A DNA stretch of 60,417 nucleotides, counting the filler, from Dehalococcoidia bacterium (GTDB lineage Bacteria; Chloroflexota; Dehalococcoidia; DSTF01; RBG-16-68-14): NCBI GenBank assembly GCA_040882355.1. It is 3 parts of 2 records of this genome, joined end to end, with 100 filler letters (N's around TTAATTAATTAA, not from the genome) between each part and the next. Parts side by side here need not be neighbours in the genome. Positions count along the whole stretch, not along the records: positions 40,626 to 60,417 come from JBBEBM010000044.1; 2 more parts are not named here. The stretch is one strand, 5' to 3'. The translations under genes and the position numbers were made by a program. The notes beneath the pieces were generated by a model. It was not told where the DNA came from and made no database searches. It saw only the letters and a program-made list of their open reading frames with translations. Positions 12,701 to 60,417 of the stretch are shown here, in pieces; position 1 is the first letter of the stretch, and the number at the start of each line of letters is the position of its first letter.

Positions 12701-14773
12701 GTGATCCCCGCCCGCGCCGCCGCAACCGTCGCCCTGCTGCTCCTGCTCGCAGTCGCGACAGTGTCGAGCCCTGGCCACGGCACGGCCGGGAGCGAGTCAG
12801 GGGACGAGATTTCACTCGATCCGTCCGGCCGGGCGAAGATGCCACACGGCAAGCTGCAGGCGCCCCTCGATCGCCTCGCCGCGGCGCAGCGTGCCTACGG
12901 CCCAACGGGCGCTCGTGTCGCGGCGGAGCGTCTCGACGTGGCCCTGCACCAGGGCGAGGTGCGCATCATCATCGAGGCGCAGCCTGATAGGGCCAGCGAT
13001 GTCACGCAACGGGCCGCATCGCTCGGCCTCACCGTCGAGACGGCGCACCAGGACCTCGTCCAGGTGCTCGCGCCTATCGACCGCCTCGATGCGCTGGCGC
13101 GCGAGCCCTCGGTCGCCTCCGTGCGCTTGCCACTGACTCCCGTGCCAAGCGCCGTCGGCCAGGGCGTCGACCAGATCAACGCCAGCGGCTGGCACTACAT
13201 GAAGCAGCCGGGCGCCGGCGTGAAAGTCGCCGTCCTTGACCTGGGCTTCGCCGGCTACCAGTCGCTGCTGGGCACCGAGCTCCCCAGCTCCGTGACGGCG
13301 CATTCCTGCCGCGCCGACACCGACATCACCGGCGGCGGCGAAGAGCACGGCAGCGCCGTCGCCGAGATCGTCCACGAGGTCGCGCCCGGCGCCCAGCTCT
13401 ATCTCGCCAACTTCAACACGGACGTAGAGCTCGCGAACTGCATCGACTGGCTCGTCGGCCAGGGCGTGCAGGTCGTCAACTTCTCGATCGGCTACATCGC
13501 CAGCGGGCCCGGCGACGGCACCGGTCCGATCAACGACCTGGTCAGCGACGCGATCGCGCAGGGGGTCCTCTGGGTAAGTTCTTCGGGTAACCAGGCGCAG
13601 GGCCACTGGATGGGGCCCTGGCTCGACACCGACGCCGACGACCTCATCCAGTTCTCCGGGTCTGACGAAGGAAACTCGATCAACGCGACGGCCGGTTCGC
13701 TGCTGGTGCTCTTCCTGAAGTGGGACGACCCGTTCGGCGCGTCCTGCAACGACTACGATCTCTACCTGCTCAACGAGGCGAACACGACGGTCCTCTCCGC
13801 CTCAGCGACGCCCCAGGACTTCTGCAACCCTATCACCAACCCAACCGGCATCCCCACCGACCCGGTTGAGGTGGTCATCTACCAACTCCCGAGCACGGGA
13901 ACGTACAACGTGGCTGTGGGCCGGTACGACGCCGACGGCGCCGCCACGTTCCACCTCTACTCCATGATCCAGGACTGCCCCGCGCTCCAGTACTGCACGA
14001 AATCTGGCAGCATCATGGAGCCCGGCGACAACCCAAACGCGCTCACCGTCGGCGCGGTCCGCTTCACCACGCCCGACAGCATCGAGTCCTTCAGCTCGCG
14101 CGGGCCGACCGACGGCGGGACGCTGAAACCGAACATCGTTGCGCCCGACGGCGTGGACAGCGTCTCGTTCGGCTCGTTCTTCGGCACGTCTGCGTCCGCG
14201 CCGCACGCGGTGGGGGCCGCGGCGCTCGTGCAGGGCTGGCAACCCGGCTGGACGGAGGCGCAGGTCCGCGCCTTCCTCACATCGAACGCGATCGACCTTG
14301 GCGCAGCCGGGCCCGACAACACCTTCGGCTACGGCCGCCTGTTCCTGGCCCTGCCCAAGGACGGCAGCCTCGACACGGACGGCGACACCCTCCTCAACAG
14401 CGCCGACCCGGACGACGACAACGACGGCTGCACGGACACTCAGGAGCAGAGCACGGACCCGCTCGCCGGTGGCCGCCGCAGCCCGCACCACATCTGGGAC
14501 TTCATGGACCAGTACACGGGCTCGCCGCTGGCCAAGGACCGCGTCGTCGTCATCGGCGACATCGGAGCTGTGGTCGGACGCTTCGGCGCCACGGGCAACC
14601 CGAACGACGATCCGCTCATTACGCCGTCAAGTGCCACCGGCTACCACACCAGCGCGGATCGCAACGGCTCCACTCCCGGCCAGAACCCATGGAATCTGCA
14701 GTTCCCCGACGGCGGCGTCTCCATCGGTGACATTGGTGCCGCGGTCGCTCAGTTCGGCCACTCCTGCGCCTAA
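12701..14773 (+). CDS. Secreted S8 (subtilisin-like) peptidase with C-terminal flexitail/dockerin-like domain
   Basis: Signal peptide; triad VAVLDLG / EEHGSAVAE / FGTSASAPH; SFSSRGP..LKPNIVAP. Tail from ~14372: DTDGD..DDDNDGC..GGRR..WDFMD..IGDIGAVVGRFG..PDG.VSIGDIGAAVAQFGHSCA. Confidence 0.92.
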   Translation: MIPARAAATVALLLLLAVATVSSPGHGTAGSESGDEISLDPSGRAKMPHGKLQAPLDRLAAAQRAYGPTGARVAAERLDVALHQGEVRIIIEAQPDRASDVTQRAASLGLTVETAHQDLVQVLAPIDRLDALAREPSVASVRLPLTPVPSAVGQGVDQINASGWHYMKQPGAGVKVAVLDLGFAGYQSLLGTELPSSVTAHSCRADTDITGGGEEHGSAVAEIVHEVAPGAQLYLANFNTDVELANCIDWLVGQGVQVVNFSIGYIASGPGDGTGPINDLVSDAIAQGVLWVSSSGNQAQGHWMGPWLDTDADDLIQFSGSDEGNSINATAGSLLVLFLKWDDPFGASCNDYDLYLLNEANTTVLSASATPQDFCNPITNPTGIPTDPVEVVIYQLPSTGTYNVAVGRYDADGAATFHLYSMIQDCPALQYCTKSGSIMEPGDNPNALTVGAVRFTTPDSIESFSSRGPTDGGTLKPNIVAPDGVDSVSFGSFFGTSASAPHAVGAAALVQGWQPGWTEAQVRAFLTSNAIDLGAAGPDNTFGYGRLFLALPKDGSLDTDGDTLLNSADPDDDNDGCTDTQEQSTDPLAGGRRSPHHIWDFMDQYTGSPLAKDRVVVIGDIGAVVGRFGATGNPNDDPLITPSSATGYHTSADRNGSTPGQNPWNLQFPDGGVSIGDIGAAVAQFGHSCA

Positions 14774-43737: not shown

Positions 43738-43744
43738 CCGTCAA

Positions 43745-44815
43745 GTGGCGATTGATTACGACACCGACGTGCCAAAGCAGTTCGTCCGTGAACGTGGCTG
43801 GCTCAAGGCTGCGCTACAGACGAGCAAGACGATCGGACCCGGTAGTGGGCTCCGCTACCTGACATTCTGCGCAGTCGAAGCGATCGACGTGTTCTTGCTG
43901 GATCTCCACGACCTCCTCGATCGCGACCCCGCTTCAGGAAAGTTTCGAGACGTCTATTTCTGCGAGCGAGGGCCCGACGCCTTCCGTGAGATATCCGGTA
44001 TTCTTGGTCTGCAGGGATTTCTCGGCGAATTCGAAGATATCGTGCTGTTCGAGGAGGAGGAGGGGCCCGACACGGCGAATCTCAAGCCCCTGGACCATGA
44101 GATAGAGGCGTCAGAACCCCAACGGCGGCGGCTGAGGGTGAAGCGGTCTGCCGCCAATTTCCGAGAGGCATTCCCCTTTGATGTTATCAACTTGGATTTC
44201 GATGGGACGCTGTTCCCGCCCCAACAGCCGGCGGACAGTCGCCTATTCCAGGCGGTCAAGCGCGTCATAGAATGGCAGCGGACTCCGCCATCTGGCGCGC
44301 AGGGGCCAGCAGAGTTTACGCTTTTCTTGACTACGCGGGTAGACAGAGACCGCTTTGGGAGTGAGGCGTTGAAGGTCCTGATCGACTTGGTAGAGGACAA
44401 TGTCGACCAAGACCCGGGGTTCAAGGCTGGGTTCGCGAAACGGTTCAGCGGGTCGCCGGCTGACGTGGCTGCAAACGATCTCGGTCCCTTTTGCGCTGCA
44501 AGCTTGCCTAAGCAGATCCTTGAGGACGCGGTTCATTTGTCCTGGAAGGCCCAGTACCGTGACATCTTCATCTACCGGCGCACGCCTAAGAACGGTTCTG
44601 AATACCATATGGTGAGCTTCGTCTGCCACTTCACGCGGATGCCGAAGAAGGTTTCGCTGAAAGCCATGCGAGACGTGCTGGCCGAGGCGACGGCCATTGT
44701 CGCGAACGAGCCTTGCGACGTAGATCGAGAACTCGGCGACTCGGCGATTCGTGACACGCTTAGGGCGAACTTGGCGGCGGTTGTTGAGCACCGCGCGAAG
44801 GCCACGAGCCCTTGA
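43745..44815 (+). CDS. Hypothetical protein with Rossmann/methyltransferase-like motifs
   Basis: 356 aa; LRYLTFCA..AIDV, VYFCE, FPFDVINLDF, FTLFLT and Y.....YHMVSF; 7 bp after the ATPase. Confidence 0.65.
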   Translation: MAIDYDTDVPKQFVRERGWLKAALQTSKTIGPGSGLRYLTFCAVEAIDVFLLDLHDLLDRDPASGKFRDVYFCERGPDAFREISGILGLQGFLGEFEDIVLFEEEEGPDTANLKPLDHEIEASEPQRRRLRVKRSAANFREAFPFDVINLDFDGTLFPPQQPADSRLFQAVKRVIEWQRTPPSGAQGPAEFTLFLTTRVDRDRFGSEALKVLIDLVEDNVDQDPGFKAGFAKRFSGSPADVAANDLGPFCAASLPKQILEDAVHLSWKAQYRDIFIYRRTPKNGSEYHMVSFVCHFTRMPKKVSLKAMRDVLAEATAIVANEPCDVDRELGDSAIRDTLRANLAAVVEHRAKATSP

Positions 44816-45139
44816 CGCAGCTGAGGTGCCGAAGAATGCACGGCACCATCGGTCGGGGGCATGGGGCCATCGCCAACTGCGGGCCGCTGTCCAGGGTGGT
44901 TGACCTTGCAGCGCGGGCAGTCACCAAGCGATACCGCCTGTCGGCAGCCAGACCTCGCTACCCTCACCCCGGCCCCTCTCGCGAACCCTAGGCTGGCCCC
45001 CCTGCCACCCGCCCCTTGGCGCTCTCGCCGCCCGGCCTTACCCTCGTGCTCTACAACTCGCCGTGGGGAGGGCCCTCCGAGGGCGGTCCTCTCAGATTCG
45101 GCGCAGGAAGGGAGGATCGCCGTGATCCGGCGAAAAAGG

Positions 45140-45162
45140 CGATTTTGCAAATCGTAATGACA
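45140..45162 (+). repeat. Dispersed intergenic repeat, copy 2
   Basis: CGATTTTGCAAATCGTAATGACA. Confidence 0.6.
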
Positions 45163-45289
45163 TGAACCGCGCGCCAGGCCGGGCGTCGCCCGCCGGCGCC
45201 CTCACGCTGCGGGCGCTATTTACTGTCGAAAGTCGCTCTGCTAGACTGCGCAGGCAAACGGACAGCCCATCTTGCACGGAGGTACAGCC

Positions 45290-45796
45290 ATGAAAGCCCT
45301 ACTTCGCCTCATCGACCGGATCAGCCCGCCGGAGACCGTCCACGCCCACTGCGACATCCCCTGCGGCATCTACGACCCGCACCTGGCGCAGATCGGCGCG
45401 CTCACCTGCATCCGCATGAACCAGCTCATCAACGACCTCGGCGACTCGCCGGGCCCGGGGGACAAGAAGAAGAATGACGCGTGGCACAGCTCGCTCGGCC
45501 GCTACATCACGGTGAAGGAGGAGCACGCGGAGCTGGTGAAGCGAGAGGTGCGCATCATCTGGGGCGACTTCTTCAAGCCGGAGCACCTGGAGAAGAGCCC
45601 TGACCTCCACGCCACGGTCTGGAACATCATGAAGGGCGGCTCCAAGGTGCGCCAGAACATCGACCTGGCCGCCGCGGAAGAGCTGCTCGCCGGGGTACAG
45701 AAGTTCGCCGAAGCGTTTTGGGCGGCGAAGGGCGTCAAGACCCAGCGAGTGCCGTCGCAGCAGGCCGTCGGCGGCGAGCTCGTCGTCCCGGCGTAA
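45290..45796 (+). CDS. sodN: Nickel superoxide dismutase precursor
   Basis: SD GGAGG; leader ending VHA then Ni-hook HCDIPCGIYDP; KEEHA..VK; IWGDFFKP. Confidence 0.96.
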   Translation: MKALLRLIDRISPPETVHAHCDIPCGIYDPHLAQIGALTCIRMNQLINDLGDSPGPGDKKKNDAWHSSLGRYITVKEEHAELVKREVRIIWGDFFKPEHLEKSPDLHATVWNIMKGGSKVRQNIDLAAAEELLAGVQKFAEAFWAAKGVKTQRVPSQQAVGGELVVPA

Positions 45797-45803
45797 GGCC
45801 ACG

Positions 45804-46124
45804 ATGCTGCGAACGCTCGGGGCGCTGGTGCCGCTCGGCCGCTATCGCGTGGCCGGGCGGAGCATGACGCCTGCGCTGATCGAAGGCGAACGCGTCCTCG
45901 TCAACAAGGCCGCCTACTGGTTCGCCACGCCGCGCCCCGACGACGTCGTCGTCCTGCGCGACCCGCGCGCGCCGCAACGATTGCTGATCAAGCGCATCGA
46001 ACGCGCGGCCGGCGTCGACGAGTGGCTGGTGGCCGGCGACAACCCGGACGCCAGCACCGACAGCCGCGCCTTCGGCCCCGTCGCCCGCGACGCCATCGTC
46101 GGCAAGGTGTGGCTGCGGTACTAG
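45804..46124 (+). CDS. sodX: Ni-SOD maturation protease (S26-like)
   Basis: V.G.SM.P.L, LIKRI and GDNP.ASTDSR.FGPV; directly after sodN. Confidence 0.92.
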   Translation: MLRTLGALVPLGRYRVAGRSMTPALIEGERVLVNKAAYWFATPRPDDVVVLRDPRAPQRLLIKRIERAAGVDEWLVAGDNPDASTDSRAFGPVARDAIVGKVWLRY

Positions 46125-46174
46125 GTTCGATCGCATCGTGCCCGGGCTGAAGGCCCGGGCCGAAGGTTCTAAGA

Positions 46175-46208
46175 AGAGGAGGGGCGTTCACAGAAACGCC
46201 CCTCCTCT
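46175..46208. terminator. Hairpin between convergent genes
   Basis: AGAGGAGGGGCGTT-N6-AACGCCCCTCCTCT 14-bp stem. Confidence 0.7.
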
Positions 46209-46227
46209 CAGTAAGCGCGAGCTGTCG

Positions 46228-47034
46228 CTACCTGGCGTCCATCGCCTCGGCCAGGTCGCGGGCATCCACACCCGTCGATCCGCCGGCGGGCGCCATCACG
46301 ATCACCATGCGCATCTGGTCGCCGTCGAGGAAGCCGTACATCTCCATCGCGATGCCGTCGGCGAACGGGTTGTCTTCCTCCGGCGCGCCCAACGCGCCGA
46401 GCAGGCCGGCGATGTCCATGGTCATGCGCATGCCGAACCCGCTCTCGCCCAGACCGTCGGCGTCGAGCACGTCGATCTCAGCGAAGCCGAGGCCGGACTC
46501 GCCGGCGAGGCTCTCGATCTCGTCGAGGTCGTCCTCGCTCAGATCGAAGCTTCCCATGTCTTCGAGCGCCTCAGGCGGCAGCACCGCGGCGGCGGACATC
46601 ACGATCGCGTTGAACTCACCGCTCTCGACGTCGCCGCTCATGAACATGCTCGCCGCCAGATCGAGGTCGCCCGCTTCGCTCGGCACGGAGTAGCCGAAGC
46701 TGCCCATGTCAAGGAAGTCGCCGGGCAGGTCGCCCGCGGTGAGGAGCGCCGCCGCCAGCGTCGGGTCCGGTTCGCCCATCGAGGCGGCGCTTCCGCTCAG
46801 GCCGCCCAATACGTCGAAGGGGTTGAACGCGGCGAAGGGATCGCCGCCCGCGTCGTCGCCCGACGCGCTGTCGGCGTCGTCTGTCGCGACGGCGCTGTCG
46901 TCGGTCGCCTGGGCGTCGGACCCGGGCGGGTCTGCGACCTCAGTGGGCGCGCTGCCGCTCTTGTCACCGCCGCTGTTGCAGGCGGCGAGGAGCAGCACGA
47001 GCGGGAGGAGCAGGAACGCGAGTTTTCGGGGCAT
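46228..47034 (-). CDS. Acidic lipoprotein of unknown function
   Basis: SD GGAGG; lipobox LAAC; ALLTAGDLP motif. Confidence 0.8.
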   Translation of the reverse strand: MPRKLAFLLLPLVLLLAACNSGGDKSGSAPTEVADPPGSDAQATDDSAVATDDADSASGDDAGGDPFAAFNPFDVLGGLSGSAASMGEPDPTLAAALLTAGDLPGDFLDMGSFGYSVPSEAGDLDLAASMFMSGDVESGEFNAIVMSAAAVLPPEALEDMGSFDLSEDDLDEIESLAGESGLGFAEIDVLDADGLGESGFGMRMTMDIAGLLGALGAPEEDNPFADGIAMEMYGFLDGDQMRMVIVMAPAGGSTGVDARDLAEAMDAR

Positions 47035-47163
47035 GAGACCTCCTTCTGGGGGCAAGGGTGCCCTGTCTCATCATCGGCCTGAGCTGAGCCCGACTTCAGG
47101 GCGGAGGGGCGCTAAGGGGTCGGCCAAGGGGCGTACGCCGCTGGATTGGCCGGGCCTACTAGC

Positions 47164-47796
47164 CTAGCTAGCGGACTGAGACGGGACCTTCTTCTCGAAG
47201 GGAGGGAAGAGCGACTCCAGCTCGAGCCGGATCGGGTCTTCCGGCGGCAGGTAGGCGCTGAAGTCGCCGTCCGGCTCGGGACGCTCGCGCTCGCCGGTGT
47301 GACCGGCATCACGGATGCGGTCCTGGAGCAGCATCAGGCCCTGGAGCAGCGACTCAGGCCTGGGCGGACAGCCCGGCACGTACACATCTACCGGTGCAAT
47401 CAGGTTGACGCCCGGGAGCGTACTGTAACCGAACGCAAATGGCCCGCCCATCGTCGCGCAACCGCCGAAGGCGATCACCCAGCGTGGTTCCGCCATCTGC
47501 AGGTAGATGCGGCGCACGGCGGGCGACATCTTCCACGTCACTGTGCCCGCCACGATCATCAGGTCGGCCTGGCGCGGCGAGGCGCGGAAGACCTCCGCGC
47601 CGAAGCGGGCGATGTCATAGCGGGAGGTGGCCGTGGCGATCATCTCGATCGCGCAGCAGGCGAGTCCGAACATCACCGGCCAGAGTGACGAGCTGCGCGC
47701 CCAGTTCAGCACCGAGTCGACGGAGGAGAGGAGCAGGTTTCCGCTCAGCTCGTCCTCGATGTCCGTGGTCAGCAGCGGGACTGCCTCTGAAGCCAT
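47164..47796 (-). CDS. nuoB: NADH-quinone oxidoreductase subunit B
   Basis: [22 protein letters not shown] and [14 protein letters not shown]. Confidence 0.96.
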
Positions 47797-47901
47797 CGCG
47801 AGTTTGAGAACTCCTCACTGCGCATTCTAGGCGGTTGTGAACGAGGGCGCAATGGCGCCGAGTGCCGGTGAGCGAGTGGACATAAGCGCTGGAAGTGATA
47901 C

Positions 47902-47930
47902 TGGACAGAATGGTTATTGGGCACTACACT
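47902..47930 (+). promoter_or_regulatory. sigma70-type promoter upstream of the scaffoldin
   Basis: TGGACA-N17-TACACT. Confidence 0.55.
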
Positions 47931-48160
47931 TACCGTAATTCGAGGGGGAGCGGCGTCCATGAGGGGCCTGGTTCCTCCTCGATTTGTGTCTCAGTAGCTT
48001 GCTTCCGGCGGGCTTGTGGCAAGGACGCCTCAGTCCTCGCGATACGACTACTGCGCGTGGGCGTTTGGATTATGAACGGCTGCGAATGGTGGGGGCGCAG
48101 GCGAGCCGGAAGGCCGCCTGCTGCCTCTGCTTTGCGCGGGTGTCCTTTCTGGGAGGGAGA

Positions 48161-51100
48161 TTGACCGGCACGATCCGAGGATTGGCCCGCCGACGGCTAC
48201 TGCGGCACAGTCTCATCCTGGCCGCGTTTCTGCTGGCCGCCACCGCCGCCTTGCTCCTGCTGACGCCTGCCGGCCGCCGCTCCGCGCACGCTCAGCAGCC
48301 CACACCGACGCCGACACCTGCGGCGCTGGTGCGCATCGACCCGGTGTCGCAGAACGTCGCGCAGGGCGAAGACGTGGTGGTCGACGTCGTCGCCGACGAG
48401 GTGAATGACCTCGGCGCGTACGAGTTCATCCTGGGCTTCGATCCTGGAGCGCTCACCTTCTCCAGCTTTACCAACGGCTTGTTCCTGGGGAGCACCGGGC
48501 GCAGCGTCATCTGCCTTCCCGCGCTCACGTCGATCGACATCGACGGCGATACGATCATCGATCCGGGCTTCATCCGCGTCGGCTGCGTGACAACCGGTGG
48601 AGCGACCGGCGCGTCGGGTAGCGGGATCCTGGCGACGATCAGCTTCACCACGTCATGTGACGGCTTCAGCGCGCTGGACCTGCCGCTCGTCGGCATCGCG
48701 ACCACGCTGGGCGGCGGCATTCCCACCCGCACGCAAGGAGGTGACGTGACGATCGGAGGGGGTGGCAACGACTGCCCCACGCCCGAGCCGTCGGCAACAC
48801 CCACCGTAACGGACACGCCCACGGTCACGCCCACCGGCCCGACGGCGACGCCCAGCGTTACGGCCACGCCCGCAACGCCGACGATCCCGCCGACGCCGGC
48901 GCCGCAGCTCTGCGGCCCCGCCGCCGGACCGGCGGTCTGCGTCCTGCCGACCTTCCAGACAAACGTGGTCGGTGGGGTCAGGACCGTATTCGTCGGCGTC
49001 GACAACGTGACCAACCTGGGCGCGTTCCAGTTCGATCTGCTCTTCAACGACACGGTGCTTCAGCCCGTCAGCGTCAGCGTGGGGCCGTTCCTGGGCAGCA
49101 CCGGGCGTTCGGTGGTCTGCCTGCCCACGCTGAATCCGGGGCGCGTACAGCTCGTCTGCACGACGCTTGGCAGCGCGACGCCCGGGCCGAACGGCTCCGG
49201 GCTGGTCGCGGAAGTGCGCCTGCAGGGCTCAGCGACCGGCCTGTCGCCGCTGCACCTGGAGAGCGTGATCCTCACGACGGTCACTGCCGCCGAGGTGCCT
49301 GTCTCGGCCACGCAGGACGGTGTAATGACCGTGCAGCCCGGCCCGACGCCAACGCCGCCCGGCGCGACGGCGACAGCGACGGCGACGTTCACCCCCAGCG
49401 GCCCGACATCGACGCCCACGAACACGCCCACGCCCGGCCCTACGCCGTCGACGATCGTCCGCGTGATCCCGGCCGACCAGACGTTGGCCGAGGGCGAGGA
49501 CGTGGTCTTCGATATCACGGTCGAAGACGTCGTTGGCCTGGGCGCGTACGAGTTCGAGGTCGACTTCGATCAATCGCTGCTGAACTACACCAGCGTCACG
49601 AACGGCTTGTTCCTGGGGAGCGGCGGGCGCACGGTGTTTTGCCTCGCGCCCCAGCTCGACGTCGGCAAGGTGCGCTTCGGCTGCGTGACCAGCGGCGTGG
49701 CGCCGGGCGCGACGGGCAGCGGCGTGCTGGCCACCGTTACGCTCGGTTCGTCATGCGCTGGCACCAGCCCGCTCGGCCTGCCGCTGGTCGGGCTCAGCGA
49801 TACCGCGGGCGGCCCGCTCGCGCGCAACGTCGAAGAGGGCAGCGTCACGGTAACCGGCGCGACCGTGTGTCCGACACCGACAGCGACGTTCACCCCGACG
49901 GCCACGAGCACGACTGCGCCGGTGACGCCGACGCCGACGCGCACCAGCACTCCTTCGCCAACGCCCAGTCCGACGATCACGGCGACGCCCTCGCCCGGGC
50001 TCTGCGGGCTCTCGTCCGGGCTCACCGTCTGCCTGCAGCCGGTGAGTCAGAAGATCACGCGGGGCGACCAGACCACAGTGGAAGTGGTCGTCGATAACGT
50101 GAACGGTCTCGGCGCCTTCCAGGTCACGCTCGGATACAACCAGGCGCTCGTTTCGCCTGCTGACATCGCGGTCGGCACGTTCCTGGGCAGCACGAGCCGG
50201 GCGGTGGTCTGTCTCGAGCCGGCGTCTGACCCTGGCTTCTTGCAGCTCGTTTGCACCACGCTCGGCCTGGCGCCGGCCGGCCCGAGCGGCTCGGGCACGC
50301 TGGGCGTGGTCACGTTCGAGGGCATAGGAGCCGGCCTCAGCCCGCTCTCGCTCCAGGACGTTATTCTCACCAACATCGCCGGCGTGGCGTTCGCGCCGCC
50401 GGCGCTGCAGGGCGGCGCTCTTCAGGTGAANNNNNNNNNNAACGAGCCGCCCGCGCCGACGGCGACCGCCTCGCCTACGGTGACGCTCTCGCCGACGCCC
50501 ACGCTCTCGCCCACCGAGACGCCTTCGCCGACGCCCTGCCCGCCGGGGGGCTGTCCGACCCCGACGATCACGCTTACACCCACGATCACGCCGACGCGAA
50601 CGGTTACACCCACGCGCACCGTGACGCCGTCGCCCACCAGCACGCCTTCGCCCACGGCAACGCCCGGCCCGCTCACCGTGCGCGTCCAGCCCGTGTCGCA
50701 GAACCTGGCGCAGGGAGGCACAACGACCGTGGAGATCGTCGTCGACAACGCGCTCAACCTGGGCGCCTTCCAGTTTACGCTCGGCTTCAACTCCGCAGTT
50801 GTGGGCTTGCCCTCAGTCGTGGGCTTCCAATCGGTGGTGGTCGGGCCGTTCCTGGGCAGCACCAACCGTAGCGTTGTCTGCCTGCCGCCGAGCCTGGACG
50901 GCGCCGAAGTGGAGTTCGTCTGCACCACGCTGGGAAGCACACCGCTCGGCCCGTCCGGCTCCGGTGTGCTCGCCACCGCAACGTTCGAGGGTCTGACGCA
51001 GGGTCTTTCACCTCTCCACCTGTCGGACGTGATCCTGGCCGACATCGTCGGCCTGGCAAAGGCCCCCGTTACCACGCAAGACGGCGTGCTCGTCGTCGGG

Positions 51101-52855
51101 CCGGCCGCCACGCCCACGGCGACGCCCACGGCGACGCCGCTTGTGGCCGGGTCAGCGGCAGACCCGCTGGCCGCGCGGCTCGTCCTTCGTGAAGGCGCCG
51201 GGTCGGCCGCCGTCGTCCATTCGCTCGTGGTGCCTGCCGGCTCAGCGGGCGGGCCGGCCGCGCAGGCAGTCGAGGCCGCGGAGGTGTTCAAGGACCCGAA
51301 GGCGGCCAACCTCTTCCTCGGCGCCGGTACGCTCGTCATCGCGGAGCGCGTGGACGGAGTCCCGGCCGGGGCCGGCCTCGGCGCCTTCGAGCTGCACGTG
51401 GAATACAACGCCTCCGTGGTGGATGCCGAGATCGAGCCCGCCTCGTTCCTAAGCAGCACGGGTCGCGATCAGCACTGTCTCACCGCGAAGTCTCCGGGGC
51501 GGGTCCGGCTCTCGTGCTTCAGCACGGGCTCGGTCAGCGGCCCCACGGGTTCCGGCATCCTGGCGCTGATCGTGGTCCGACCGGTCGAGACCCTCGACCT
51601 GCGCGCCGCGCAGGACAACGGCGTGTTGCTCACGCTGGATGACATCTCGGCCAGCACCAGGCTTGCCGACATCAAGGGCAACCGCATGCCTGTGGGCGCG
51701 GTGGGCGACAGCCGGGTCATCGTGCGAGCGCTCGAGGGCGATATCAATAACGACTGCGAGGTAAACGTCGTCGACCAACAGACCATCGCCGGCCGCTTCG
51801 GCGCCAGCCTCGGCTCGCTCTTCTACCAGCAGAACCTCGACCTGGAACCATCGATCTCGGCGGACGGCGACGTCGATATCAAGGACCTGCAGTTCGTGTT
51901 CGGGCGGAGCGGCAGCACCTGCCAGAACCCTCACCCGGAGCAGACGCCTCCGTTCAAGGAAGAGACACCGTCGCCAACGCCGACCGAGGGGCCGCCGACA
52001 GCCACGCCCACTCCGACGGTGACGGGTACCGTGACGCCTGCGACCGCTACACCGTCGGCCACCCGCACGCCGACGGCCACCCGGTCGCCGACCGCAACGG
52101 CCACTCCGACGGCGACACGTACACCGACTGCAACCGTTACCCGCACGGCCACGCCGACTGCCACTCGTACGCCGACCGCGACCGCTACCCGCACGGCCAC
52201 GCCGACGGTGGCTCGCACACCCACGCCGACCGCGACACGAACGGCCACGCGCACACCCACACCGACCGCGACACGAACGGCCACGCGCACGCCTACGACG
52301 ACGGCGACGCGAACGGCCACGGCGACACCCACGATGACGAGAACGCCAACCCTCACCGCCACGCGCACCGCGACCGCCACGGCTACGCGGAGCCCGACCG
52401 TGACGCCGACCCGCACGGCTACGCGGAGCCCAACCGTGACGCCGACCCGCACGTCGACGCGCACGCCGACCGTCACGCCGACCCGCACGTCGACGCGCAC
52501 GCCGACCGTCACGCCGACCCGCACCCGTACCCCGACGCCCACGCTGACCCGCACGCCGGGCGGTCCGACCGATACGCCCACGCCGACGGAGACGGCGGCC
52601 GCCGTGACCCGCACGCCCACGCCAACCACGACATCCGAAGTGGCGCCAACGGAGGTGCCGGGCGTGACAACCTCGCCGACGTCGCAGGTCGGCCCGGCGG
52701 TGCGCCCGCCGCCCGCAGGCCTCCCGGCGACGGGCCGCGGCGCGTCTGCTGGTGGCTGGGTGCTGACGTCGGTCCAGGCGGTGAGTCTCACAGCGGGAAT
52801 TGCGCTGCTGTTGATCTGGTCCGCGCTGGTCCGCGCGCGACGCCGCCAGGAGTAG
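48161..52855 (+). CDS. Scaffoldin-like surface protein: signal peptide, six cohesin-like domains, dockerin, Thr/Pro stalk, LPATG-TM-basic tail
   Basis: SD GGAGG and TTG at 48161. Six ~140-aa repeats (V.V..V.NLGA(Y/F)(E/Q)F.L.(F/Y)(D/N)...GSG.LA..TF) separated by PT linkers. Dockerin [21 protein letters not shown] at ~51731-51925. LPATG at 52721-52735. A 10-N gap at 50431-50440 keeps the frame. Confidence 0.88.
50431..50440. other. Small scaffold gap inside the scaffoldin gene
   Basis: Ten N at a cohesin/linker boundary; true length unknown. Confidence 0.95.
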
Positions 52856-52916
52856 CCGGATGTTGAGGATGAGAGTTGAGGAGGTGGAGGCGAAATGGCT
52901 CACAACAGCGGGCCTC

Positions 52917-52944
52917 TTTACAGAATTCGCGGAACGCGTATAAT
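52917..52944 (+). promoter_or_regulatory. sigma70-type promoter
   Basis: TTTACA-N16-TATAAT; supports a start at 53015 rather than 52895. Confidence 0.55.
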
Positions 52945-53014
52945 GACGGGGCTTACCTCTCCAAGCGCGCGTCCGCTGCGGGTAGCGGGCCCGCCTCCCC
53001 GCCGGAGTGAACGG

Positions 53015-55639
53015 ATGCGATTAGCTCGGATTTGTCAAGCAGTAGCGCTCGCCCTCGTAGCCGCCCTCCTGGGTTGGCTGGCGGTAGGCCGCGGCGCGCA
53101 GGCCCTGCCGCCCGCTGGCACGGACCGCCTGCCGGTCGTCGCCACAGCGAATGTGACGAGCCGCCTGGGCACCGAGAATGTCGTGTTCACCGGCTGGGCG
53201 GAGATCGCGCGCGAGGCGCCTCACGACGAGGGTGGCGTCGATGTGGTCGACTTCGAGGTCGTTTCGATGGACCTGCGCGGCGCCAGCTCGATTGGCGCGG
53301 TCACTGTAGCCGAAAGCGCGACCGCAGTCTCGACCGGCGAGATCAGGTCGCTCCAGGCAGGTCAGGACTTCCCGGCGTCAAGCTTCATGGACGTCTTCAT
53401 GGTTGTGACCGTGCCGGCGAACCCGACGCCGACGTTGGAGCTTCACAACCAGGCGGCGATGCGCCTGCAACCAATGACCGGCTCACAGGTGGTGACCCTG
53501 AACGCGTGGCCGCCGCTGGGCGTGACGTACCGCCTCGATCCAATCTATAGCGTGGACAACGACGGCGACACTCAGATAGATGAAGACACGGCCGACGACG
53601 ACGGCGACGGCGCGTATGATGAGGACCCGCCCGGCGGCGGGAATCAGGATACCGACGCTCTTACCGACGAGGATCCTCCCCTGGCCCAGTGCACCGTTCC
53701 CGTTTGCGACGAGGACGGCGACGGCTCGATGGACGAAGATCCGTCGTGCGTGCCGCTCTTCAGCCCCCCACCGGCGAACTCTAATCTGAAGGCGGGGTTC
53801 TGCGTTCGCGATCTCAGCTTGCAGGTCGCCCCCGAGCTGCCCAGCTTCTCGGTGGCGCGCGGCGGGCCATCCAATATCCACCCGGCCGACATTCTGAGCC
53901 TGGGCCCACCGCCACTCCAGCCGGGGGCGCCCACGCCAACGCCCACGGCGCCACCTCCGCCCACGCCTGTCGACGTCTCAGGCAATGACAACTTCGCGAA
54001 CGGCTGGGTGGTCCCGGGCCTGCCGTTTACCGGAACACAGACTACCGCCGGCTCCACCATGGAGGGTGGCGAACCCACCACGCTTGCGAACTGCCCGCTC
54101 GGCATTTCTACTCCTATCGGGGCGACGGTCTGGTATCGATTCACGCCGTCTGTAGCGGGCACCGTGACGGCCGATACCGATGGAAGCGACTTCGACACCG
54201 TGCTGGCAGCCTACACCGGTGGCGCAGTCGGCTCGCTTACCCGCGTAGCCTGTGATGATGACACCCTCTTTCCTCAATCGCGCATCGCGTTCCCGGTGGC
54301 CGCCGGGACGCTCTACAGCCTGCAGGTGGGCGGTTTCGTGAACGCGACAGGGAACCTGACGCTCAACCTCAGCGCCGGCGGCGCGATCGCCCCCGACGAG
54401 ACCGCGCCCTTCGTCCGCATCCCCTGCTTGAGTCTGGGGCTGACGGCGGATGGATGCGACGTGCCCGGCGCCACCGACGACCTGGACGCGCTCGCCTATG
54501 GCGATGACTTCCCGGCGGACGCGAGCCCGTCCGTGAACTTCTCGGTCGCGCCAGGCGCCGAAGGCGTTCTGGGCTCGGCGGTGCGCGCTCAGCGCAACTG
54601 CCCGGCGCCGGAGCCTCAGGGCGACGAGTTCCGCTCGACGTTCAACAACAGCAATACGCTGTTCCTGGATGGCAACGGTCCCATCGGCGCCTGCACCTCC
54701 GCCTTCCCGCTCGGCCTGATCGAGGGCGCTACCTCGCGCGATGACCTCGATGCTCTGGACGAAAAAGACACTTCGTTTGTTGACCCCGACGAGGACGGCG
54801 TGCCGGACAACCCCGTGTACTTCTCGCTGGAGTCGGCTTCGCCGTCGCTCACGACCTTCGGCTTCAGCGCCGCCGATATCCTCAAGACAGTAGACGGCAA
54901 TGCCCCAAGCGTCTATGCCGCGGCGCCGGCGCTCGGCCTGGAGACGGGTGACGACGTTGACGGCCTCTGCCTCCAGGAAGACGGCAACGGAGTGTATGAC
55001 CAGGCCGACACGCTTGTCTTCTCGCTTGCGAGCGGCTCGCCCACGCTGGCGCAGATCGGCGCGGGGCCAGCCGACATCCTCGCGCCTGGCAGTCCGAACC
55101 CTACCGTGCTACAGAATGAGGGGACGATGGGCCTCCTGCCGGCCGATGATCTGGACGCGATGAAGTGCCAGGCCCTGGCCCTCAAGGACCCTGTAGGCGA
55201 CACGGACGGTGACACGATTCCAAACGGGACGGACCCCGACGACGATAACGACGGGTGCACCGACTCCCAGGAGCTGGGAGCCGACCCGACGTTGGGAGGG
55301 CAGCGCGACCCGCACAACTTCTGGGACGTGATGGACGTCTTCACCGGATCGCCCCTGGCCCGTGACGGCTCGATATCAGCGGGCGACGTCGCGGGCGTGG
55401 TCGGGCGCTTCGGCGCGAACGACGGCGGGCCTGGCACGTTCGACCGCAACAGCAACCCGCTATCCATGCCCAGCCCGCCGGTACAGCCGTCCGGCGCGCG
55501 GGCGAACTACCACCCCGCCTACGATCGAGGTGGTGGCACCCCGGGCGGCAGCCCCTGGAACCTGAACCCACCGGACGGCGCGATCACTTCAGGGGATATC
55601 GCAGCGGCCGTGGCGCAGTTCGGGCATAGCTGCCTGTGA
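53015..55639 (+). CDS. Secreted multidomain acidic protein with C-terminal flexitail/dockerin-like domain
   Basis: Signal peptide ending AQA; DxDGD..DED repeats; PPC-like NDNFAN..VWYRFT..SDFDTVLAAY; repeated DDLDA; tail GGQRDPHNFWD..SAGDVAGVVGRFG..PDG.ITSGDIAAAVAQFGHSCL. Confidence 0.85.
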   Translation: MRLARICQAVALALVAALLGWLAVGRGAQALPPAGTDRLPVVATANVTSRLGTENVVFTGWAEIAREAPHDEGGVDVVDFEVVSMDLRGASSIGAVTVAESATAVSTGEIRSLQAGQDFPASSFMDVFMVVTVPANPTPTLELHNQAAMRLQPMTGSQVVTLNAWPPLGVTYRLDPIYSVDNDGDTQIDEDTADDDGDGAYDEDPPGGGNQDTDALTDEDPPLAQCTVPVCDEDGDGSMDEDPSCVPLFSPPPANSNLKAGFCVRDLSLQVAPELPSFSVARGGPSNIHPADILSLGPPPLQPGAPTPTPTAPPPPTPVDVSGNDNFANGWVVPGLPFTGTQTTAGSTMEGGEPTTLANCPLGISTPIGATVWYRFTPSVAGTVTADTDGSDFDTVLAAYTGGAVGSLTRVACDDDTLFPQSRIAFPVAAGTLYSLQVGGFVNATGNLTLNLSAGGAIAPDETAPFVRIPCLSLGLTADGCDVPGATDDLDALAYGDDFPADASPSVNFSVAPGAEGVLGSAVRAQRNCPAPEPQGDEFRSTFNNSNTLFLDGNGPIGACTSAFPLGLIEGATSRDDLDALDEKDTSFVDPDEDGVPDNPVYFSLESASPSLTTFGFSAADILKTVDGNAPSVYAAAPALGLETGDDVDGLCLQEDGNGVYDQADTLVFSLASGSPTLAQIGAGPADILAPGSPNPTVLQNEGTMGLLPADDLDAMKCQALALKDPVGDTDGDTIPNGTDPDDDNDGCTDSQELGADPTLGGQRDPHNFWDVMDVFTGSPLARDGSISAGDVAGVVGRFGANDGGPGTFDRNSNPLSMPSPPVQPSGARANYHPAYDRGGGTPGGSPWNLNPPDGAITSGDIAAAVAQFGHSCL

Positions 55640-55693
55640 TCAGAGGAGCGTGAAGCTCTTCGGCGCTTCATGCCAGAGGTAAGAGCCGAGGAC

Positions 55694-55718
55694 GGAGCAA
55701 GGAGCAAGGAGCAAGGAG
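55694..55718 (+). repeat. Heptamer tandem repeat (GGAGCAA)3 running into the RBS
   Basis: GGAGCAA GGAGCAA GGAGCAA GGAG. Confidence 0.65.
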
Positions 55719-55726
55719 GGGAAACC

Positions 55727-57889
55727 ATGGAACGTCACATGAGATCACAGCGGTGGCTGCAACGGAGGGGCTGGTTGTTGCTGCTGCCTCTGCTGCTGGC
55801 CGCAGCGGCGGGCGTCCTCGCTGTTACGCTCACCCGGCCGCAGGGGGCCGCAGCGCTGGACGGCGCCATGGCGCTCGACTGCAACGCCGGGCTTTCAGCC
55901 ACGCCGTTCCCGCCGGCGCCGACGCCCACGCCCACCAAGGTCGTCGACCCGGACGTCGACACGAACTGCTCGTTCCGGGTAGGGACCGTCTTCCATATTT
56001 CCATGCACATCACCGATGCGCCCGCGGCGGGCTTCAACGGCTGGCAGGCGAAGGTCCGCTGGCCCAATGACATCCTCCAGTACTTACCGGCAAGCAACCC
56101 CCTGACGGAATCGAGGTCGCCGGAATGTACCATCCCTGCCCGCTTCGATAATCAGCCGGGGGATCCCTCCTTCGCCTATGCGTGCCAGCCGTTTCCCGCA
56201 CCGGACCCCCTGCTCGTGTACGAAGGTATCGCAGGCCAGTGGCGTATGCGCTGCGATGCGGAGGGCACGACCCAACTGATCCTGGTGGCCCGCGCGGGAG
56301 ACTCGCAGGCAGGATCGCACTTCACGGACGGGTTCAACAATGCCTTAGATCCCACGCTGAGCAACGCCGTCGTGACTTGCTTTGCCGACACGCCAACGGT
56401 GACGAGGACGGCCACGGCGACGAACACAGCCACGCGCACGCCGACGGCGACGCGCACGCCAACGAGCACGCCGACGCCAGTCAACACTCCGACGCCCACG
56501 CTTAGCCCAACACCGACGCCGCTGCCCAGCGACTTGCCCGACGTCCTCGTCATCAAGAACGATGGGCCGGATCCGGTTGGGCCGGCGGGTACCCTCACCT
56601 ATAGCCTGGTCGTGCGCAACATCGGCCTCCAGACTGCGACCAGCGTGCAGGCTGTAGACACCTTGCCGCCTGAAGTGACATTCGTCTCCGCCAGCCCGGC
56701 CTGCTCGCACGTGGCCGGCGTCGTGACCTGCCTTGTCGGCAACCTGGCGGCCAACGACGGCGCTCCGGGCGGCCCGGACGAGGCGAAGATACAGATCCAG
56801 GTCACGGCGCCCAGCCCGGCCTTAGATACCCGTGTCCTGAACCAGGCCGAGGTGACCGCCTCCAACGAGCCGTTTGCTAACGCAGGCAACAACCGCGACT
56901 TTGAAGAGACCGTGGTGCTGGCACCGCGCGCGGATGTGACGGTGGAGAAGACCGACCAGCCTGATCCGCTGTCCAGCGGCGGCAGTGTCACCTACACCAT
57001 CACCGCGCGGAACATCGGCCCCGAACAGGCCAACGACGTGACCATTGAGGACACGCTGCCCGTGAGCGCCACCTTTGTCTCGGCCAGCCCGGAGTGCGGG
57101 GCGCCGGTAGCGGGCGTCGTCACGTGTCTCCTCGGCAGCCTGGGGGCGAACGGCGGACAGGCCGCCGTCCAGATTACGGTGAGTGCGCCCTTCGTCACTC
57201 AGGACCTGCGCCTGAAGAATACCGCCCGCGTGAGTGCGAGCAATGAACTGTTCGCCCAGACGGGCAACAACCTGGACATCGAAAACACAGCCGTGATCGC
57301 CCCCGATCCAGACCTGGTCGTGACGAAGGCCGACTCGCAGGACCCGGTGCTGCGCGTCCGTCAGTTCAGCTACAGCATCACTGTCGCCAACCAGGGCGGC
57401 GGCGACGCGAAGGGCGTGACGGTGACCGACCAGTTGCCGACCACGACGCTGCCCAACGGTACGCCCCAACCTCTGGTGTACAAGAGCGCCAGCGGTGCGA
57501 GCTGTTCAGCCATGCCGCTCAACCTCATCACCTGCAGCCTCCCGCTGGTGCCCGCCAACGGCGGTCAGGTGGTGATCACCATCAACGTGCGCGCGCCTAC
57601 GGTGCTCAGCGACACTACGCTGAACAACCAGGCGAGCGCCGTCGATCCTGATGAGCCTGGCGATCCCACCGCCAACAACAGCGACGGCGAGGCGACGGTC
57701 ATCGAAGCCTGCTTCGACGTGAACAACGATAACATCGTCTCCATCGGCGACATCGGTATCATCATCGCCGCGTTCGGCACGCTCAGCTCGGATCCGGACT
57801 ACGACCCGCTTCTGGATATTGACGACAAGGGAGTGATCTCGATCGGCGATATCGGCTGGGTGGTCGGCCAGTTCGGCCGCATTTGCTGA
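55727..57889 (+). CDS. Secreted protein: cohesin-like N-domain, PT linker, three DUF11 Ig-like repeats, C-terminal dockerin
   Basis: Three D..V.K.D.PDP.....TY.I.V.N.G...A..V...D.LP...NN repeats; tail CFDVNNDNIVSIGDIG..DIDDKGVISIGDIG..QFGRIC. Confidence 0.88.
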   Translation: MERHMRSQRWLQRRGWLLLLPLLLAAAAGVLAVTLTRPQGAAALDGAMALDCNAGLSATPFPPAPTPTPTKVVDPDVDTNCSFRVGTVFHISMHITDAPAAGFNGWQAKVRWPNDILQYLPASNPLTESRSPECTIPARFDNQPGDPSFAYACQPFPAPDPLLVYEGIAGQWRMRCDAEGTTQLILVARAGDSQAGSHFTDGFNNALDPTLSNAVVTCFADTPTVTRTATATNTATRTPTATRTPTSTPTPVNTPTPTLSPTPTPLPSDLPDVLVIKNDGPDPVGPAGTLTYSLVVRNIGLQTATSVQAVDTLPPEVTFVSASPACSHVAGVVTCLVGNLAANDGAPGGPDEAKIQIQVTAPSPALDTRVLNQAEVTASNEPFANAGNNRDFEETVVLAPRADVTVEKTDQPDPLSSGGSVTYTITARNIGPEQANDVTIEDTLPVSATFVSASPECGAPVAGVVTCLLGSLGANGGQAAVQITVSAPFVTQDLRLKNTARVSASNELFAQTGNNLDIENTAVIAPDPDLVVTKADSQDPVLRVRQFSYSITVANQGGGDAKGVTVTDQLPTTTLPNGTPQPLVYKSASGASCSAMPLNLITCSLPLVPANGGQVVITINVRAPTVLSDTTLNNQASAVDPDEPGDPTANNSDGEATVIEACFDVNNDNIVSIGDIGIIIAAFGTLSSDPDYDPLLDIDDKGVISIGDIGWVVGQFGRIC

Positions 57890-57915
57890 GAACTCACCAC
57901 CCTGCCTCAACCTGG

Positions 57916-57948
57916 CAAGAGCCCGGCCCAGTAGGGGCCGGGCTCTTG
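57916..57948 (+). terminator. Terminator-like hairpin
   Basis: CAAGAGCCCGGCCC-N5-GGGCCGGGCTCTTG 14-bp stem. Confidence 0.75.
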
Positions 57949-58318
57949 TGCTAAGGCGTGGCGTCGCGGCCCTTGCTCCAAAAGTTGACATAACCGCTGA
58001 CCGGGCCGGGTGGCCGGCCCAGAGCCCGGGCGAGATTTTCCCACCGCCAGGGTATTGACAAGCAGGGCGGATCGTGATATATCTGGTGCGCTGGTGGAAC
58101 TCTGTTCCACTTGGATCCCCGCCCGAACAACCTTATACTCTGCGTTCGCAGGCCAATTTGCTTGTCTATCTTGGCAGGCTGTTGCACCTGAAGAGCGCGC
58201 GTTGGCTCCTACCCCCGCCTAGGGCCCTGAAAGGGGGGATGTCCAGAACCACAGGCAACAGAAATTCCGTGGAACATCGGAGAGAAGCAAATTACTTCTC
58301 GGTAGGAGGTTTTACAAC

Positions 58319-60417
58319 GTGCATCAGAACGTACGAAAGTTGACAGTGTGGGCGCTGCTCGTCCTGCCGCTGGTGGCGGTAGGCGTGGCCGTGGCGCTCA
58401 TGGTCACCTGGGGTAGCAACGCTCAGGCCAATACGGTGACTCCGGAGCTGTCCATCGCCGGCGTTGGCCTGAACTGCGACACCGACCCCGCCACGGGCGC
58501 TGGCGCCAAGTGCAACGTGCCCGTAGGCACCATGTTCACAGTCCAAGCAAACGTCGACAAGCTTGCTGGCTTGACCGATGTAGACATGGACACGAACGCC
58601 GGCTACAACGGCTTCCAGATCCGTTTACTCACGTCGGCAGAGCTCACCCTGAAGAACCGGGCAACGCAGACCGAGCTGGGTCCCGCTGCCGGTCGGTTCT
58701 GGCCAGACTGCGGCATTCCGGCGGAGAACAAGGCCGCGAATGACTACCAGTTGGGCTGCAACATCGGCATTGGCGGGGTCGGCTCCATCTACACGGGCAA
58801 GGTAGCCGAGGTCGACTACAACTGCACGACCCAGGGCGCCTTCAGCGTCGCGATGCCCAACGGTGCGGCGCCGAACAGCCACGTGACGAACGAGAGCAAC
58901 GGCGCAGTGCCGGACGGCACTGAGATTGACACGCTCGCCATCAACTGCACGCCGCCTAGCCAGTTGATCAATGTGAACGTGGTGGACGCCGCTGTTCCAG
59001 GCAAGAAGCTGAGCGGCAGCTGCGTCCTGATTGCCGTTGACATGCTGGCCGGTTCGCCGCCCGCGCAGGTCAATCAGCCGATTGACGTGGTCAGCGACAA
59101 CAACGCCAACGCGACTTGCGATGGCATCATCGGCGGTCCGCTGTCCGACTCGAACGCGGCCGTCGGCCGCATCGACGTCAGCATCAGCGGCGCGCTGCGT
59201 ATCCAGAACGGTGACAGCTGGCACGCCCAGCAGGTGGCGACCGATGCGAAGCACCTCGTGGACAACACGAAGTACGCGTGTGACCTGAGTGTGGGCAAGT
59301 GCACCGTCAACATCAGTAATGTCCGCATCGCGGGCAACGGCTTCGTCAACTTCAACGACACCGTGACGGGCCTCCCGCTCGCCGGCCAGTGTGTTGACGT
59401 TTCACCGCCGCTGACCACGATCTGCGACAACAACGTTGCGCCAGGCGCGGCCGGTGCCGACCTGGACCCGGCTGCTGGAGTGATCCACTTCACGCAACCG
59501 ATCGGCGTTTACACGGTTACCTACAACCCGGTAAACCAGCCGAGCGACCGTCTCGTGAAGGCTCCGCTCGCCGTCGCCTGTGACCTGTCGGGTACGAGCA
59601 CGGCGACGCAGACGTGCAACGCCAAGTACAACTTCAACCCGACGATTCCGTTCAACCTGAAGACGCCCACGCTGCAGAACCTGTTCCTGACAGCCCAGGG
59701 CGCCAAGCTGCCGCCGAGCACCTGCGCAGCGAGCACGAACGTCCAGTCGTTCACGCACACGCTGAGCAACGCGCCGACGACAGCCGACCCGAAGGACCCG
59801 TCTTTGATCCAGCAGATCGGTGGATTCGAGATGGACGTCCTCTTCGACGAGGACCTGATCTGCGTGAACCTGGCCGCCGGTGCCTACTTCACCAACACCG
59901 CTGGCGGGACTTGCTTCATCGACGACAAGGATGACGGACTGCAGCCTGACGGCCTGGCCCGCATCGGTTGTGTCGTCTTGGGCAAGCCGACCTCAGTGAG
60001 CAGCTCCCTTGAGCTGGCCGTGATTACGGTCCGCCCGCAGCCGGAGCTCTACTCCCTGATCACAGCAGACCAGGACAACGGCGTTATCGTCCAGGTCCTG
60101 AACTCAGGCTGTAACCTTGCTGACATGCAGGGTCACCCGATCAAGAAGATCGGCTGTGACGACAGCGAACTGACCATCCGCTACCTCGAAGGCGACGTGA
60201 ACGGCGACTGCGCTGTGAACGTGCGCGACGAGCAGCTCTTGGCCTTCCGCTGGGGCGCCAAGATTGGTAGCCTGCTGTACAACGACCGCTTCGACCTGGA
60301 GCCGTCCGGTCAGATCAACAGTGACGGCGACATCGACATCAAGGATGTCCAGTTCGTCTACGGTCGCCATGGCAGCATCTGCACCAAGGCAGGTCTGCCG
60401 CCGCAGACGTGGCCGGC
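58319..60417 (+). CDS. Large secreted Cys-rich protein with C-terminal cohesin plus dockerin; no stop in window, absent from the ORF track
   Basis: SD GGAGG at 58305 and GTG at 58319: [37 protein letters not shown]... Same frame at 60182: YLEGDVNGDCAVNVRDEQLLAFRWG..DLEPSGQINSDGDIDIKDVQFVYGRHGSIC. Confidence 0.88.
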   Translation, partial: MHQNVRKLTVWALLVLPLVAVGVAVALMVTWGSNAQANTVTPELSIAGVGLNCDTDPATGAGAKCNVPVGTMFTVQANVDKLAGLTDVDMDTNAGYNGFQIRLLTSAELTLKNRATQTELGPAAGRFWPDCGIPAENKAANDYQLGCNIGIGGVGSIYTGKVAEVDYNCTTQGAFSVAMPNGAAPNSHVTNESNGAVPDGTEIDTLAINCTPPSQLINVNVVDAAVPGKKLSGSCVLIAVDMLAGSPPAQVNQPIDVVSDNNANATCDGIIGGPLSDSNAAVGRIDVSISGALRIQNGDSWHAQQVATDAKHLVDNTKYACDLSVGKCTVNISNVRIAGNGFVNFNDTVTGLPLAGQCVDVSPPLTTICDNNVAPGAAGADLDPAAGVIHFTQPIGVYTVTYNPVNQPSDRLVKAPLAVACDLSGTSTATQTCNAKYNFNPTIPFNLKTPTLQNLFLTAQGAKLPPSTCAASTNVQSFTHTLSNAPTTADPKDPSLIQQIGGFEMDVLFDEDLICVNLAAGAYFTNTAGGTCFIDDKDDGLQPDGLARIGCVVLGKPTSVSSSLELAVITVRPQPELYSLITADQDNGVIVQVLNSGCNLADMQGHPIKKIGCDDSELTIRYLEGDVNGDCAVNVRDEQLLAFRWGAKIGSLLYNDRFDLEPSGQINSDGDIDIKDVQFVYGRHGSICTKAGLPPQTWP

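Follow-up and report, generated by a model that had tools for sequence, protein, structure and literature searches.

Clostridium (Acetivibrio) thermocellum CipA, with its X-dockerin II, and A. cellulolyticus ScaB carry tandem cohesins on Thr/Pro linkers and a beta-sandwich fused to a distinct dockerin. In the sca cluster of Ruminococcus flavefaciens, according to the excerpts of PMC12484212, scaffoldin genes are clustered and sortase anchoring is used, with ScaE as LPXTG anchor and ScaC as one of the adaptors that combine one cohesin with one dockerin. Mucin- and starch-directed cohesin-dockerin variants exist as well (PMC12997984, in excerpt), and a survey, as far as its excerpted part goes, left out genomes derived from metagenomes and made a glycoside hydrolase fused to a dockerin a requirement (PMC11557425). 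Here, we analysed a window of 60,417 nucleotides, meaning the whole stretch of DNA with its filler, from the Dehalococcoidia bacterium assembly GCA_040882355.1 (phylum Chloroflexota). At 48161..60417 it holds four open reading frames (ORFs) in a row on the plus strand, S1 to S4, which probably specify a cohesin-dockerin scaffold anchored to the cell wall. The locus resembles a cellulosome scaffold in its working, and it fails cellulosome membership on cargo and on CBM3.

The first gene, S1 (48161..52855, +; 1564 amino acids (aa) as assembled), starts with a TTG codon at 48161 preceded by a GGAGG-like site and encodes a signal peptide, five tandem cohesins (c1-c5), a sixth cohesin with a dockerin, a stalk and an LPATG, transmembrane (TM) and RRR end. 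Pfam Cohesin matched four stretches (E 2e-27), and a purpose-built hidden Markov model (HMM) revealed six cohesin-like repeats, every one at E<1e-34. The repeats c1-c5 span 48323..51100 (c1, 48323-48757; c2, 48929-49336; c3, 49451-49855; c4, 50021-50430; c5, 50672-51100), and c6 is fused directly to a class II (“structural”) dockerin (51278..51943, the dockerin at 51728-51943). A profile built from 18 S1-type repeats of the genome found solved cohesins only in the Protein Data Bank (PDB; 21 sequences, E<=1), the best being type II cohesins of A. cellulolyticus (E 4e-11). These cohesins carry two invariant Cys and fall into two position-conserved subtypes, c1/c3 and c2/c4/c5, in a quick tree with many open forks that was used for this grouping only. 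Behind the array follow a Thr/Pro-rich stalk of 254 aa (51959..52720, 60% T+P) and the sorting signal, consisting of LPATG, a hydrophobic segment and the basic tail RRR (52721..52852). S1 is therefore both a non-catalytic scaffoldin, for which at least two cohesins are required, and a sortase-type protein with LPxTG, hydrophobic segment and basic C-terminal tail. An assembly gap of 10 N (50431-50440), bridged by no listed contig, separates c4 from c5; in orthologues, the same architecture is encoded by a single ORF of 1458-2217 aa.

S2 (53015..55639, +; start probably at 53015) is a predicted acidic multidomain secreted protein, the body of which showed no assignable family, with Pfam DUF6073 under its cut-off and the Atlas matches below the bar. 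Its C-terminal flexitail (55208-55636) matches NCBIfam NF041520 with E 4e-29 and 101.5 bits, the cut-off for a flexitail being 40 bits. Profiles and structure modelling identify this flexitail as an enlarged dockerin. It has two loop-helix repeats in common with the compact dockerins, including the repeated motif I-x-x-G-D-I..FG, and the two profiles align in HHalign at 99.1% (E 7e-19); the compact dockerin in turn matches solved type II dockerins at E 3e-12, with calmodulins behind at 2e-8. Comparison of the S2 flexitail model (predicted local distance difference test, pLDDT, 89.5) with 48,161 chains gave 15 matches with Z>=2, all of them from dockerin-containing entries (best Z 4.7, root-mean-square deviation (rmsd) 1.8 over 53 aa). 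Moreover, all seven complete S2 orthologues, an eighth being cut by a contig end and left out of the count, terminate in a canonical (type-I-like) dockerin in place of the flexitail (E 1e-11 to type I dockerins). The duplicated calcium loop and helix of a dockerin is thus found in the compact form and, with a low Z, in the flexitail, and the class II form attached to c6 has a weak PDB match (dockerin 2y3n_B, E 0.005). Complex prediction of S1 c3-c4 with the S2 flexitail scored 0.07 against a mark of 0.32 and weighs neither way.

S3 (55727..57889, +) combines an N-terminal domain that we call cohC (55814-56380), three DUF11 repeats (from 56537, 56930 and 57308; Pfam E 4e-38) and a C-terminal compact dockerin recognised by the dockerin profile (57704-57886). 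S4 (58319..60417, +), with 22 Cys in 699 aa, is truncated at the contig end by only a few residues, judged from orthologues; a cohC domain (58397-58948) and a Cys-rich middle precede a cohesin of the S1 type by HMM (59753-60181), to which a class II dockerin is fused (60182-60406, dockerin profile). cohC had no match in Pfam or NCBIfam and a weak profile similarity to the S1-type cohesin (HHalign 72%). Its model (pLDDT 89.6) matched cohesins in Foldseek at E 5e-7, and against the same 48,161 chains the 20 best rows were cohesins without exception (Z 11.3-15.7; for the best, an rmsd of 2.0 over 130 aa), while non-cohesins such as pilins and adhesins reached Z 10.9 at most. The predicted fold points to cohC as a cohesin family missed by sequence libraries. 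The cohesin beta-sandwich, on which the original prediction depended, is therefore supported in two ways: by sequence profile for the S1 repeats, and by predicted structure for cohC. The genome holds 19 cohC domains in 17 ORFs.

All four proteins start with a signal-peptide-like hydrophobic stretch, as judged by eye, and their export is predicted. A single operon is doubtful, because a promoter-like site (52917..52944, +; 11/12 consensus positions, a consensus match only) precedes S2 and an inverted repeat with a 15-bp stem (57915..57949), which has no U-tract and was not called a terminator by the scan, precedes S4. The original prediction had described four consecutive, co-oriented secreted proteins: a six-cohesin protein with dockerin, Thr/Pro stalk of about 250 aa and LPATG/TM/RRR end, an acidic multidomain protein with flexitail dockerin, a protein with cohesin-like domain, three DUF11 repeats and dockerin, and a Cys-rich protein with cohesin and dockerin. 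All four ORFs exist and the first three descriptions were borne out, that of S2 by the NF041520 match and a tail modelled as an enlarged two-helix dockerin, while the description of S4 was correct but incomplete, as the protein has a second, N-terminal cohesin-fold domain and runs off the contig.

The means for sortase anchoring were found in the genome (3.33 Mb, completeness 93.9%). One sortase, encoded on C29 and over the PF04203 cut-off, carries the His, TLxTC and Arg motifs, its nearest NCBIfam class being class F, under the cut-off of that class. Peptidoglycan genes comprise mraY and three transpeptidases; peptidoglycan was shown in Tepidiforma and inferred to be ancestral in the class, according to the excerpt of PMC10284905. 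The LPxTG-TM pattern matched 35 times, and 31 of these matches are plausible, four (FtsW/RodA or antisense frames) having been set aside. Tandem LPxTG proteins with Big_1 domains were also seen, five adjacent on contig C35 (33200-53199) and three on C52 (50800-56000).

The census of dockerin or flexitail proteins and sortases that was proposed with the original prediction returned, besides the single sortase, 79 dockerin-like ORFs by our own profiles, including a few fragments or frameshifted pieces. They divide into 49 full flexitails, eight of the cohesin-fused class and 22 others; NF041520 itself gave 54 matches, 51 of them above cut-off. Cohesin-fold domains number about 38 (18-19 S1-type and 19 cohC). 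Most dockerin-like ORFs are free of cohesins and have enzyme or binding domains. A Pfam scan of all 79 revealed RCC1 propellers (17), S8 subtilases (six), glucose/sorbosone dehydrogenase-like proteins (three), P-domains (three), two each of M23, phosphoesterases, CAP and beta-helix proteins, and one each of penicillin amidase, RHS, Kelch and VWA proteins. The RHS/YD-repeat protein (C22:30325-34737; L018:301-4713) has an internal dockerin-like module directly before the RHS core. Three further flexitail proteins (L009, L036 and L040:301-3042) of 850-1015 aa are Cys-rich, with an unannotated repeat and no Pfam match at E<=0.05.

Among 31 genomes searched, this one included, S1-type cohesins occur in 26, the flexitail in 19, the compact dockerin class in 22 and the canonical class in 14, with up to 76 copies and none in this genome; given that kin are not independent, the co-occurrence is a pattern and not a statistic. 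The 15 family relatives each have 13-53 flexitail copies. Besides our genome, one of these relatives (G008) is without the canonical class, of which the other 14 have 4-76 copies, and compact dockerins are relatively numerous in both. Pairing of cohesin subtypes with dockerin classes by co-loss failed, as this genome, in which the canonical class is missing, keeps both S1 subtypes and cohC. None of the five genomes of family f2 matched any of the four cohesin/dockerin models, though sortases are present there. Only five of 200 genomes drawn across the phylum showed an S1-type cohesin match, a single one each, and this type is therefore concentrated in one order, where sortases were found in 53 of 58 genomes (one of them, G243, flagged as unpublished). 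The cohesin-dockerin module of S4 was found at 33 loci, 30 in metagenome-assembled genomes (MAGs) labelled Dehalococcoidia, Chloroflexia or Chloroflexota and three as weak Planctomycetota matches.

Comparison of 20 loci from 18 relatives revealed the gene order S1-S2-S3-S4 in seven relatives, usually followed by more single-cohesin and anchored cohC genes; several other loci stop at contig edges. Six relatives have sortase genes at a distance of about 6-10 kb from the cluster. In family f3 (L092, L093, L095 and L101), the scaffoldin is split into two genes, one for a TM-ended multi-cohesin protein and one for a cohesin-dockerin protein with LPGSG or LPGAG at its end; two single-contig genomes show this split as well.

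Based on domain anatomy, predicted folds, census, gene order and co-occurrence, we consider it probable that the locus encodes a wall-anchored cohesin-dockerin scaffold which displays dockerin-tagged cargo, is extended by adaptors and has a second dockerin class that links scaffolds. Once outside the cell, S1 would be cleaved at its LPATG motif by the class-F-like sortase and attached to peptidoglycan, the Thr/Pro stalk keeping its cohesins at a distance from the wall. About 70 secreted proteins, whose calcium-loop dockerins belong to one family (flexitail or compact), would plug into cohesins, the sockets being those of S1 and of smaller proteins that are anchored or act as adaptors, S3 and S4 among them. 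As S3 and S4 each carry a socket and a plug, they could lengthen or branch the assembly, and the cohesin-fused class II dockerin at the end of the S1 array and in S4 probably joins scaffolds to one another. The displayed load would consist of binding propellers, proteases, phosphoesterases and oxidoreductases, and with such a load the system would likely serve adhesion and, in sediment, the capture and degradation of organic matter of proteinaceous or microbial origin. We infer secretion, sortase linkage, calcium binding, cohesin-dockerin binding and type pairing from the way these families are known to behave, and the ecological role is likewise inferred. The modular, wall-anchored display system in Chloroflexota that had been proposed from the sequence thereby gains support from folds, census, gene order and co-occurrence, with mostly non-carbohydrase cargo and with binding still presumed.

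Several observations weigh against this display scaffold. A cohesin fold by itself shows no function, and many cargo proteins are without a family match. The structural Z of the flexitail model is low (4.7 at best), Foldseek with this model gave no match at E<=0.001, the flexitail alignment profile stayed sub-threshold against the PDB (best E 0.12), and the flexitail differs from solved dockerins by its long insertions and by an additional acidic loop at the N-terminus. Seven cohesin-positive genomes have no flexitail, and the cargo includes one GH30-like protein. In several proteins a cohesin is joined to a flexitail or compact dockerin, and the sockets of flexitails may therefore differ from the S1 cohesins.

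The alternative that survives best is a real but mainly structural network, in which proteins with both socket and plug form a branched polymer as a coat or biofilm matrix, flexitail cargo sits on cohC or single anchored cohesins, and the S1 cohesins mostly bind scaffold parts. Proteins with both modules are indeed many, since 9 of the 17 cohC ORFs carry a dockerin-like module as well and 26 of 28 class II dockerins sit directly after a cohesin-like domain. In addition, the multi-cohesin proteins of relatives can end in a compact dockerin (three) or a flexitail (three) and not in LPxTG (seven), and in some cohC proteins only a stalk with an LPxTG or TM anchor follows the domain. The prevalence of cohesin-free dockerin-like ORFs with enzyme or binding domains is, however, the pattern of a display scaffold, and we regard a mainly structural network as rather unlikely, although the two overlap and are not exclusive.

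An improbable explanation is that the flexitail is an independent, dockerin-derived C-terminal tail for sorting or envelope binding, and that the repeats with a cohesin fold serve ordinary LPxTG adhesins as inert Ig-like spacers. The dockerin-like module is C-terminal in 63 of the 79 ORFs, the flexitail takes the place of LPxTG at the end of some scaffoldins, and NCBIfam describes NF041520 as no more than a tail found on putative surface proteins, in a library description without mechanism. Yet the flexitail has no TM segment, keeps both dockerin helices and loops, is exchanged with canonical dockerins in the S2 orthologues and was seen only in cohesin-positive genomes among the 31. It is also N-terminal in two proteins and internal in one, positions not expected of a C-terminal sorting signal.

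A conventional polysaccharide-degrading cellulosome, or a close variant with enzymes too divergent to recognise, is very improbable: one GH30-like flexitail protein, two beta-helix cargo proteins that could be polysaccharide-active, many unannotated cargo proteins and an incomplete genome (93.9%) can be cited for it, but GH5, GH9 and CBM3 had no match genome-wide while control genomes matched, and none of the 79 ORFs matched a glycoside hydrolase (GH) or carbohydrate-binding module (CBM) family of Pfam at E<=1e-5. GH48 is not counted among these negatives, as no control matched in that search. Dockerin-fused cellulases are thus not the main cargo by the GH5 and GH9 searches and the Pfam scan, and the scaffoldin has no CBM3. 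The statement that no GH or CBM is recognisable holds for the locus and not quite for the genome, in which remote searches identified a GH30-like TIM barrel with an FN3-like domain and a flexitail (C54:69259-72168; L039:301-3210), the only likely glycoside hydrolase among the cargo.

A bolder form of the display scaffold is put forward tentatively, as a possibility that we hold well below the scaffold itself. One order of soil and sediment Dehalococcoidia might have the first large cohesin-dockerin surface machine with a load other than carbohydrate enzymes, with the flexitail as its main plug, serving as a platform for grappling and digesting microbes or their remains. It might comprise at least three dockerin classes (flexitail/compact, fused class II and canonical) and at least three cohesin classes, one invisible to Pfam, and cover the wall with a load of between 70 and more than 100 proteins, including RCC1-like propellers, subtilases, M23, CAP and RHS proteins.

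The window is made of joined contig pieces: two pieces of C42 make up 1-40525, and C44, whose end is at 60417, supplies 40626-60417; the joins lie at 17309-17408, where about 64 kb of C42 are skipped, and at 40526-40625, after which C44 begins. A dockerin-bearing protease that the original prediction had noted in the window is real, being an S8 subtilase with C-terminal flexitail and a candidate cargo (12701..14773, +), but it is situated on C42 and not on the locus contig C44, and a link of this protease to the locus was rejected. At the start of C44 lies what is probably a restriction-modification or defence island (40901-44815, +), made up of a Type II DNA methyltransferase, an ATPase of GHKL/MORC type that weakly matches restriction enzymes and Mza, and a 356-aa ORF without annotation. 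A nickel superoxide dismutase gene, sodN, with its maturation protease follows at 45272-46124 (+), and its presence suggests oxygen exposure. A NuoB-like subunit, identified by eye from its Cys motifs, is encoded at 47164-47796 (-), divergent from the scaffoldin gene. Read depth goes up toward the end of C44, and copies of the S4 cohesin-dockerin module with 65-76% identity are present on other contigs (L027:301-4454, L077:5023-8709, L050:301-1539 and L064:4649-5944); such repeated modules may account for the end of C44 at 60417. The locus was present in four DNA runs, all sediment metagenomes of a single study and one possibly the source, and the runs listed as holding it include no RNA run.

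No description of a cohesin-dockerin system in Chloroflexota was found in the literature searched, the scope of which did not extend to subscription papers and supplements, and no microbiological paper was found under the word flexitail. The word stem Chloroflex is absent from PMC11557425 and PMC12484212, and one paper bearing on dockerin and Dehalococcoidia reports none in Anaerolineae. With the present analysis, a mechanism would be offered for the flexitail, a domain catalogued but unexplained with about 50 copies in this genome, a cohesin family missed by sequence libraries is now named cohC, and cellulosome-type scaffolds are extended, at full cellulosome scale, to a phylum without a description found. 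The locus also hints at a way in which uncultured bacteria that abound in sediment may feed or attach. Its modules are small and expressible, so that the claim can be put to a direct test, and designer scaffolds would profit from new orthogonal cohesin-dockerin pairs with disulfides.

The general idea of a non-cellulolytic scaffold has precedent. ANME archaea have genome-inferred, scaffoldin-like proteins with a dockerin and up to five cohesins; their cargo consists of ABC substrate-binding and S-layer domains, and no LPxTG scaffoldin or flexitail is described in the excerpted parts of that source (PMC9012536). Candidatus Stygibacter (Cloacimonadota), as excerpted from PMC8542988, has a MAG-inferred scaffoldin with dockerin-tagged S8 and other peptidases, which differs by CBM2/CBM3, a C-terminal-domain anchor and few cargo proteins, including GH18 and GH57. 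We know of no dedicated multi-cohesin scaffoldin in Clostridium perfringens. Its cohesin (X82)-dockerin complexes (PDB 2ozn, 2vo8), the best structural matches of both our models, are likewise non-cellulosomal, with modules sitting on hydrolases. In contrast to R. flavefaciens, the anchored protein itself has six cohesins here, and the cargo is not made of plant-wall enzymes. ScaE is reportedly a single-cohesin protein. Compared with CipA and ScaB, whose solved type II cohesins and type II dockerins the modules of this locus match, CBM3 and cellulases are missing, the multi-cohesin protein is anchored through an LPxTG of its own, a cohesin-like module precedes the dockerin, two invariant Cys are present in the cohesins, and the cargo dockerins are type-II-like and often enlarged.

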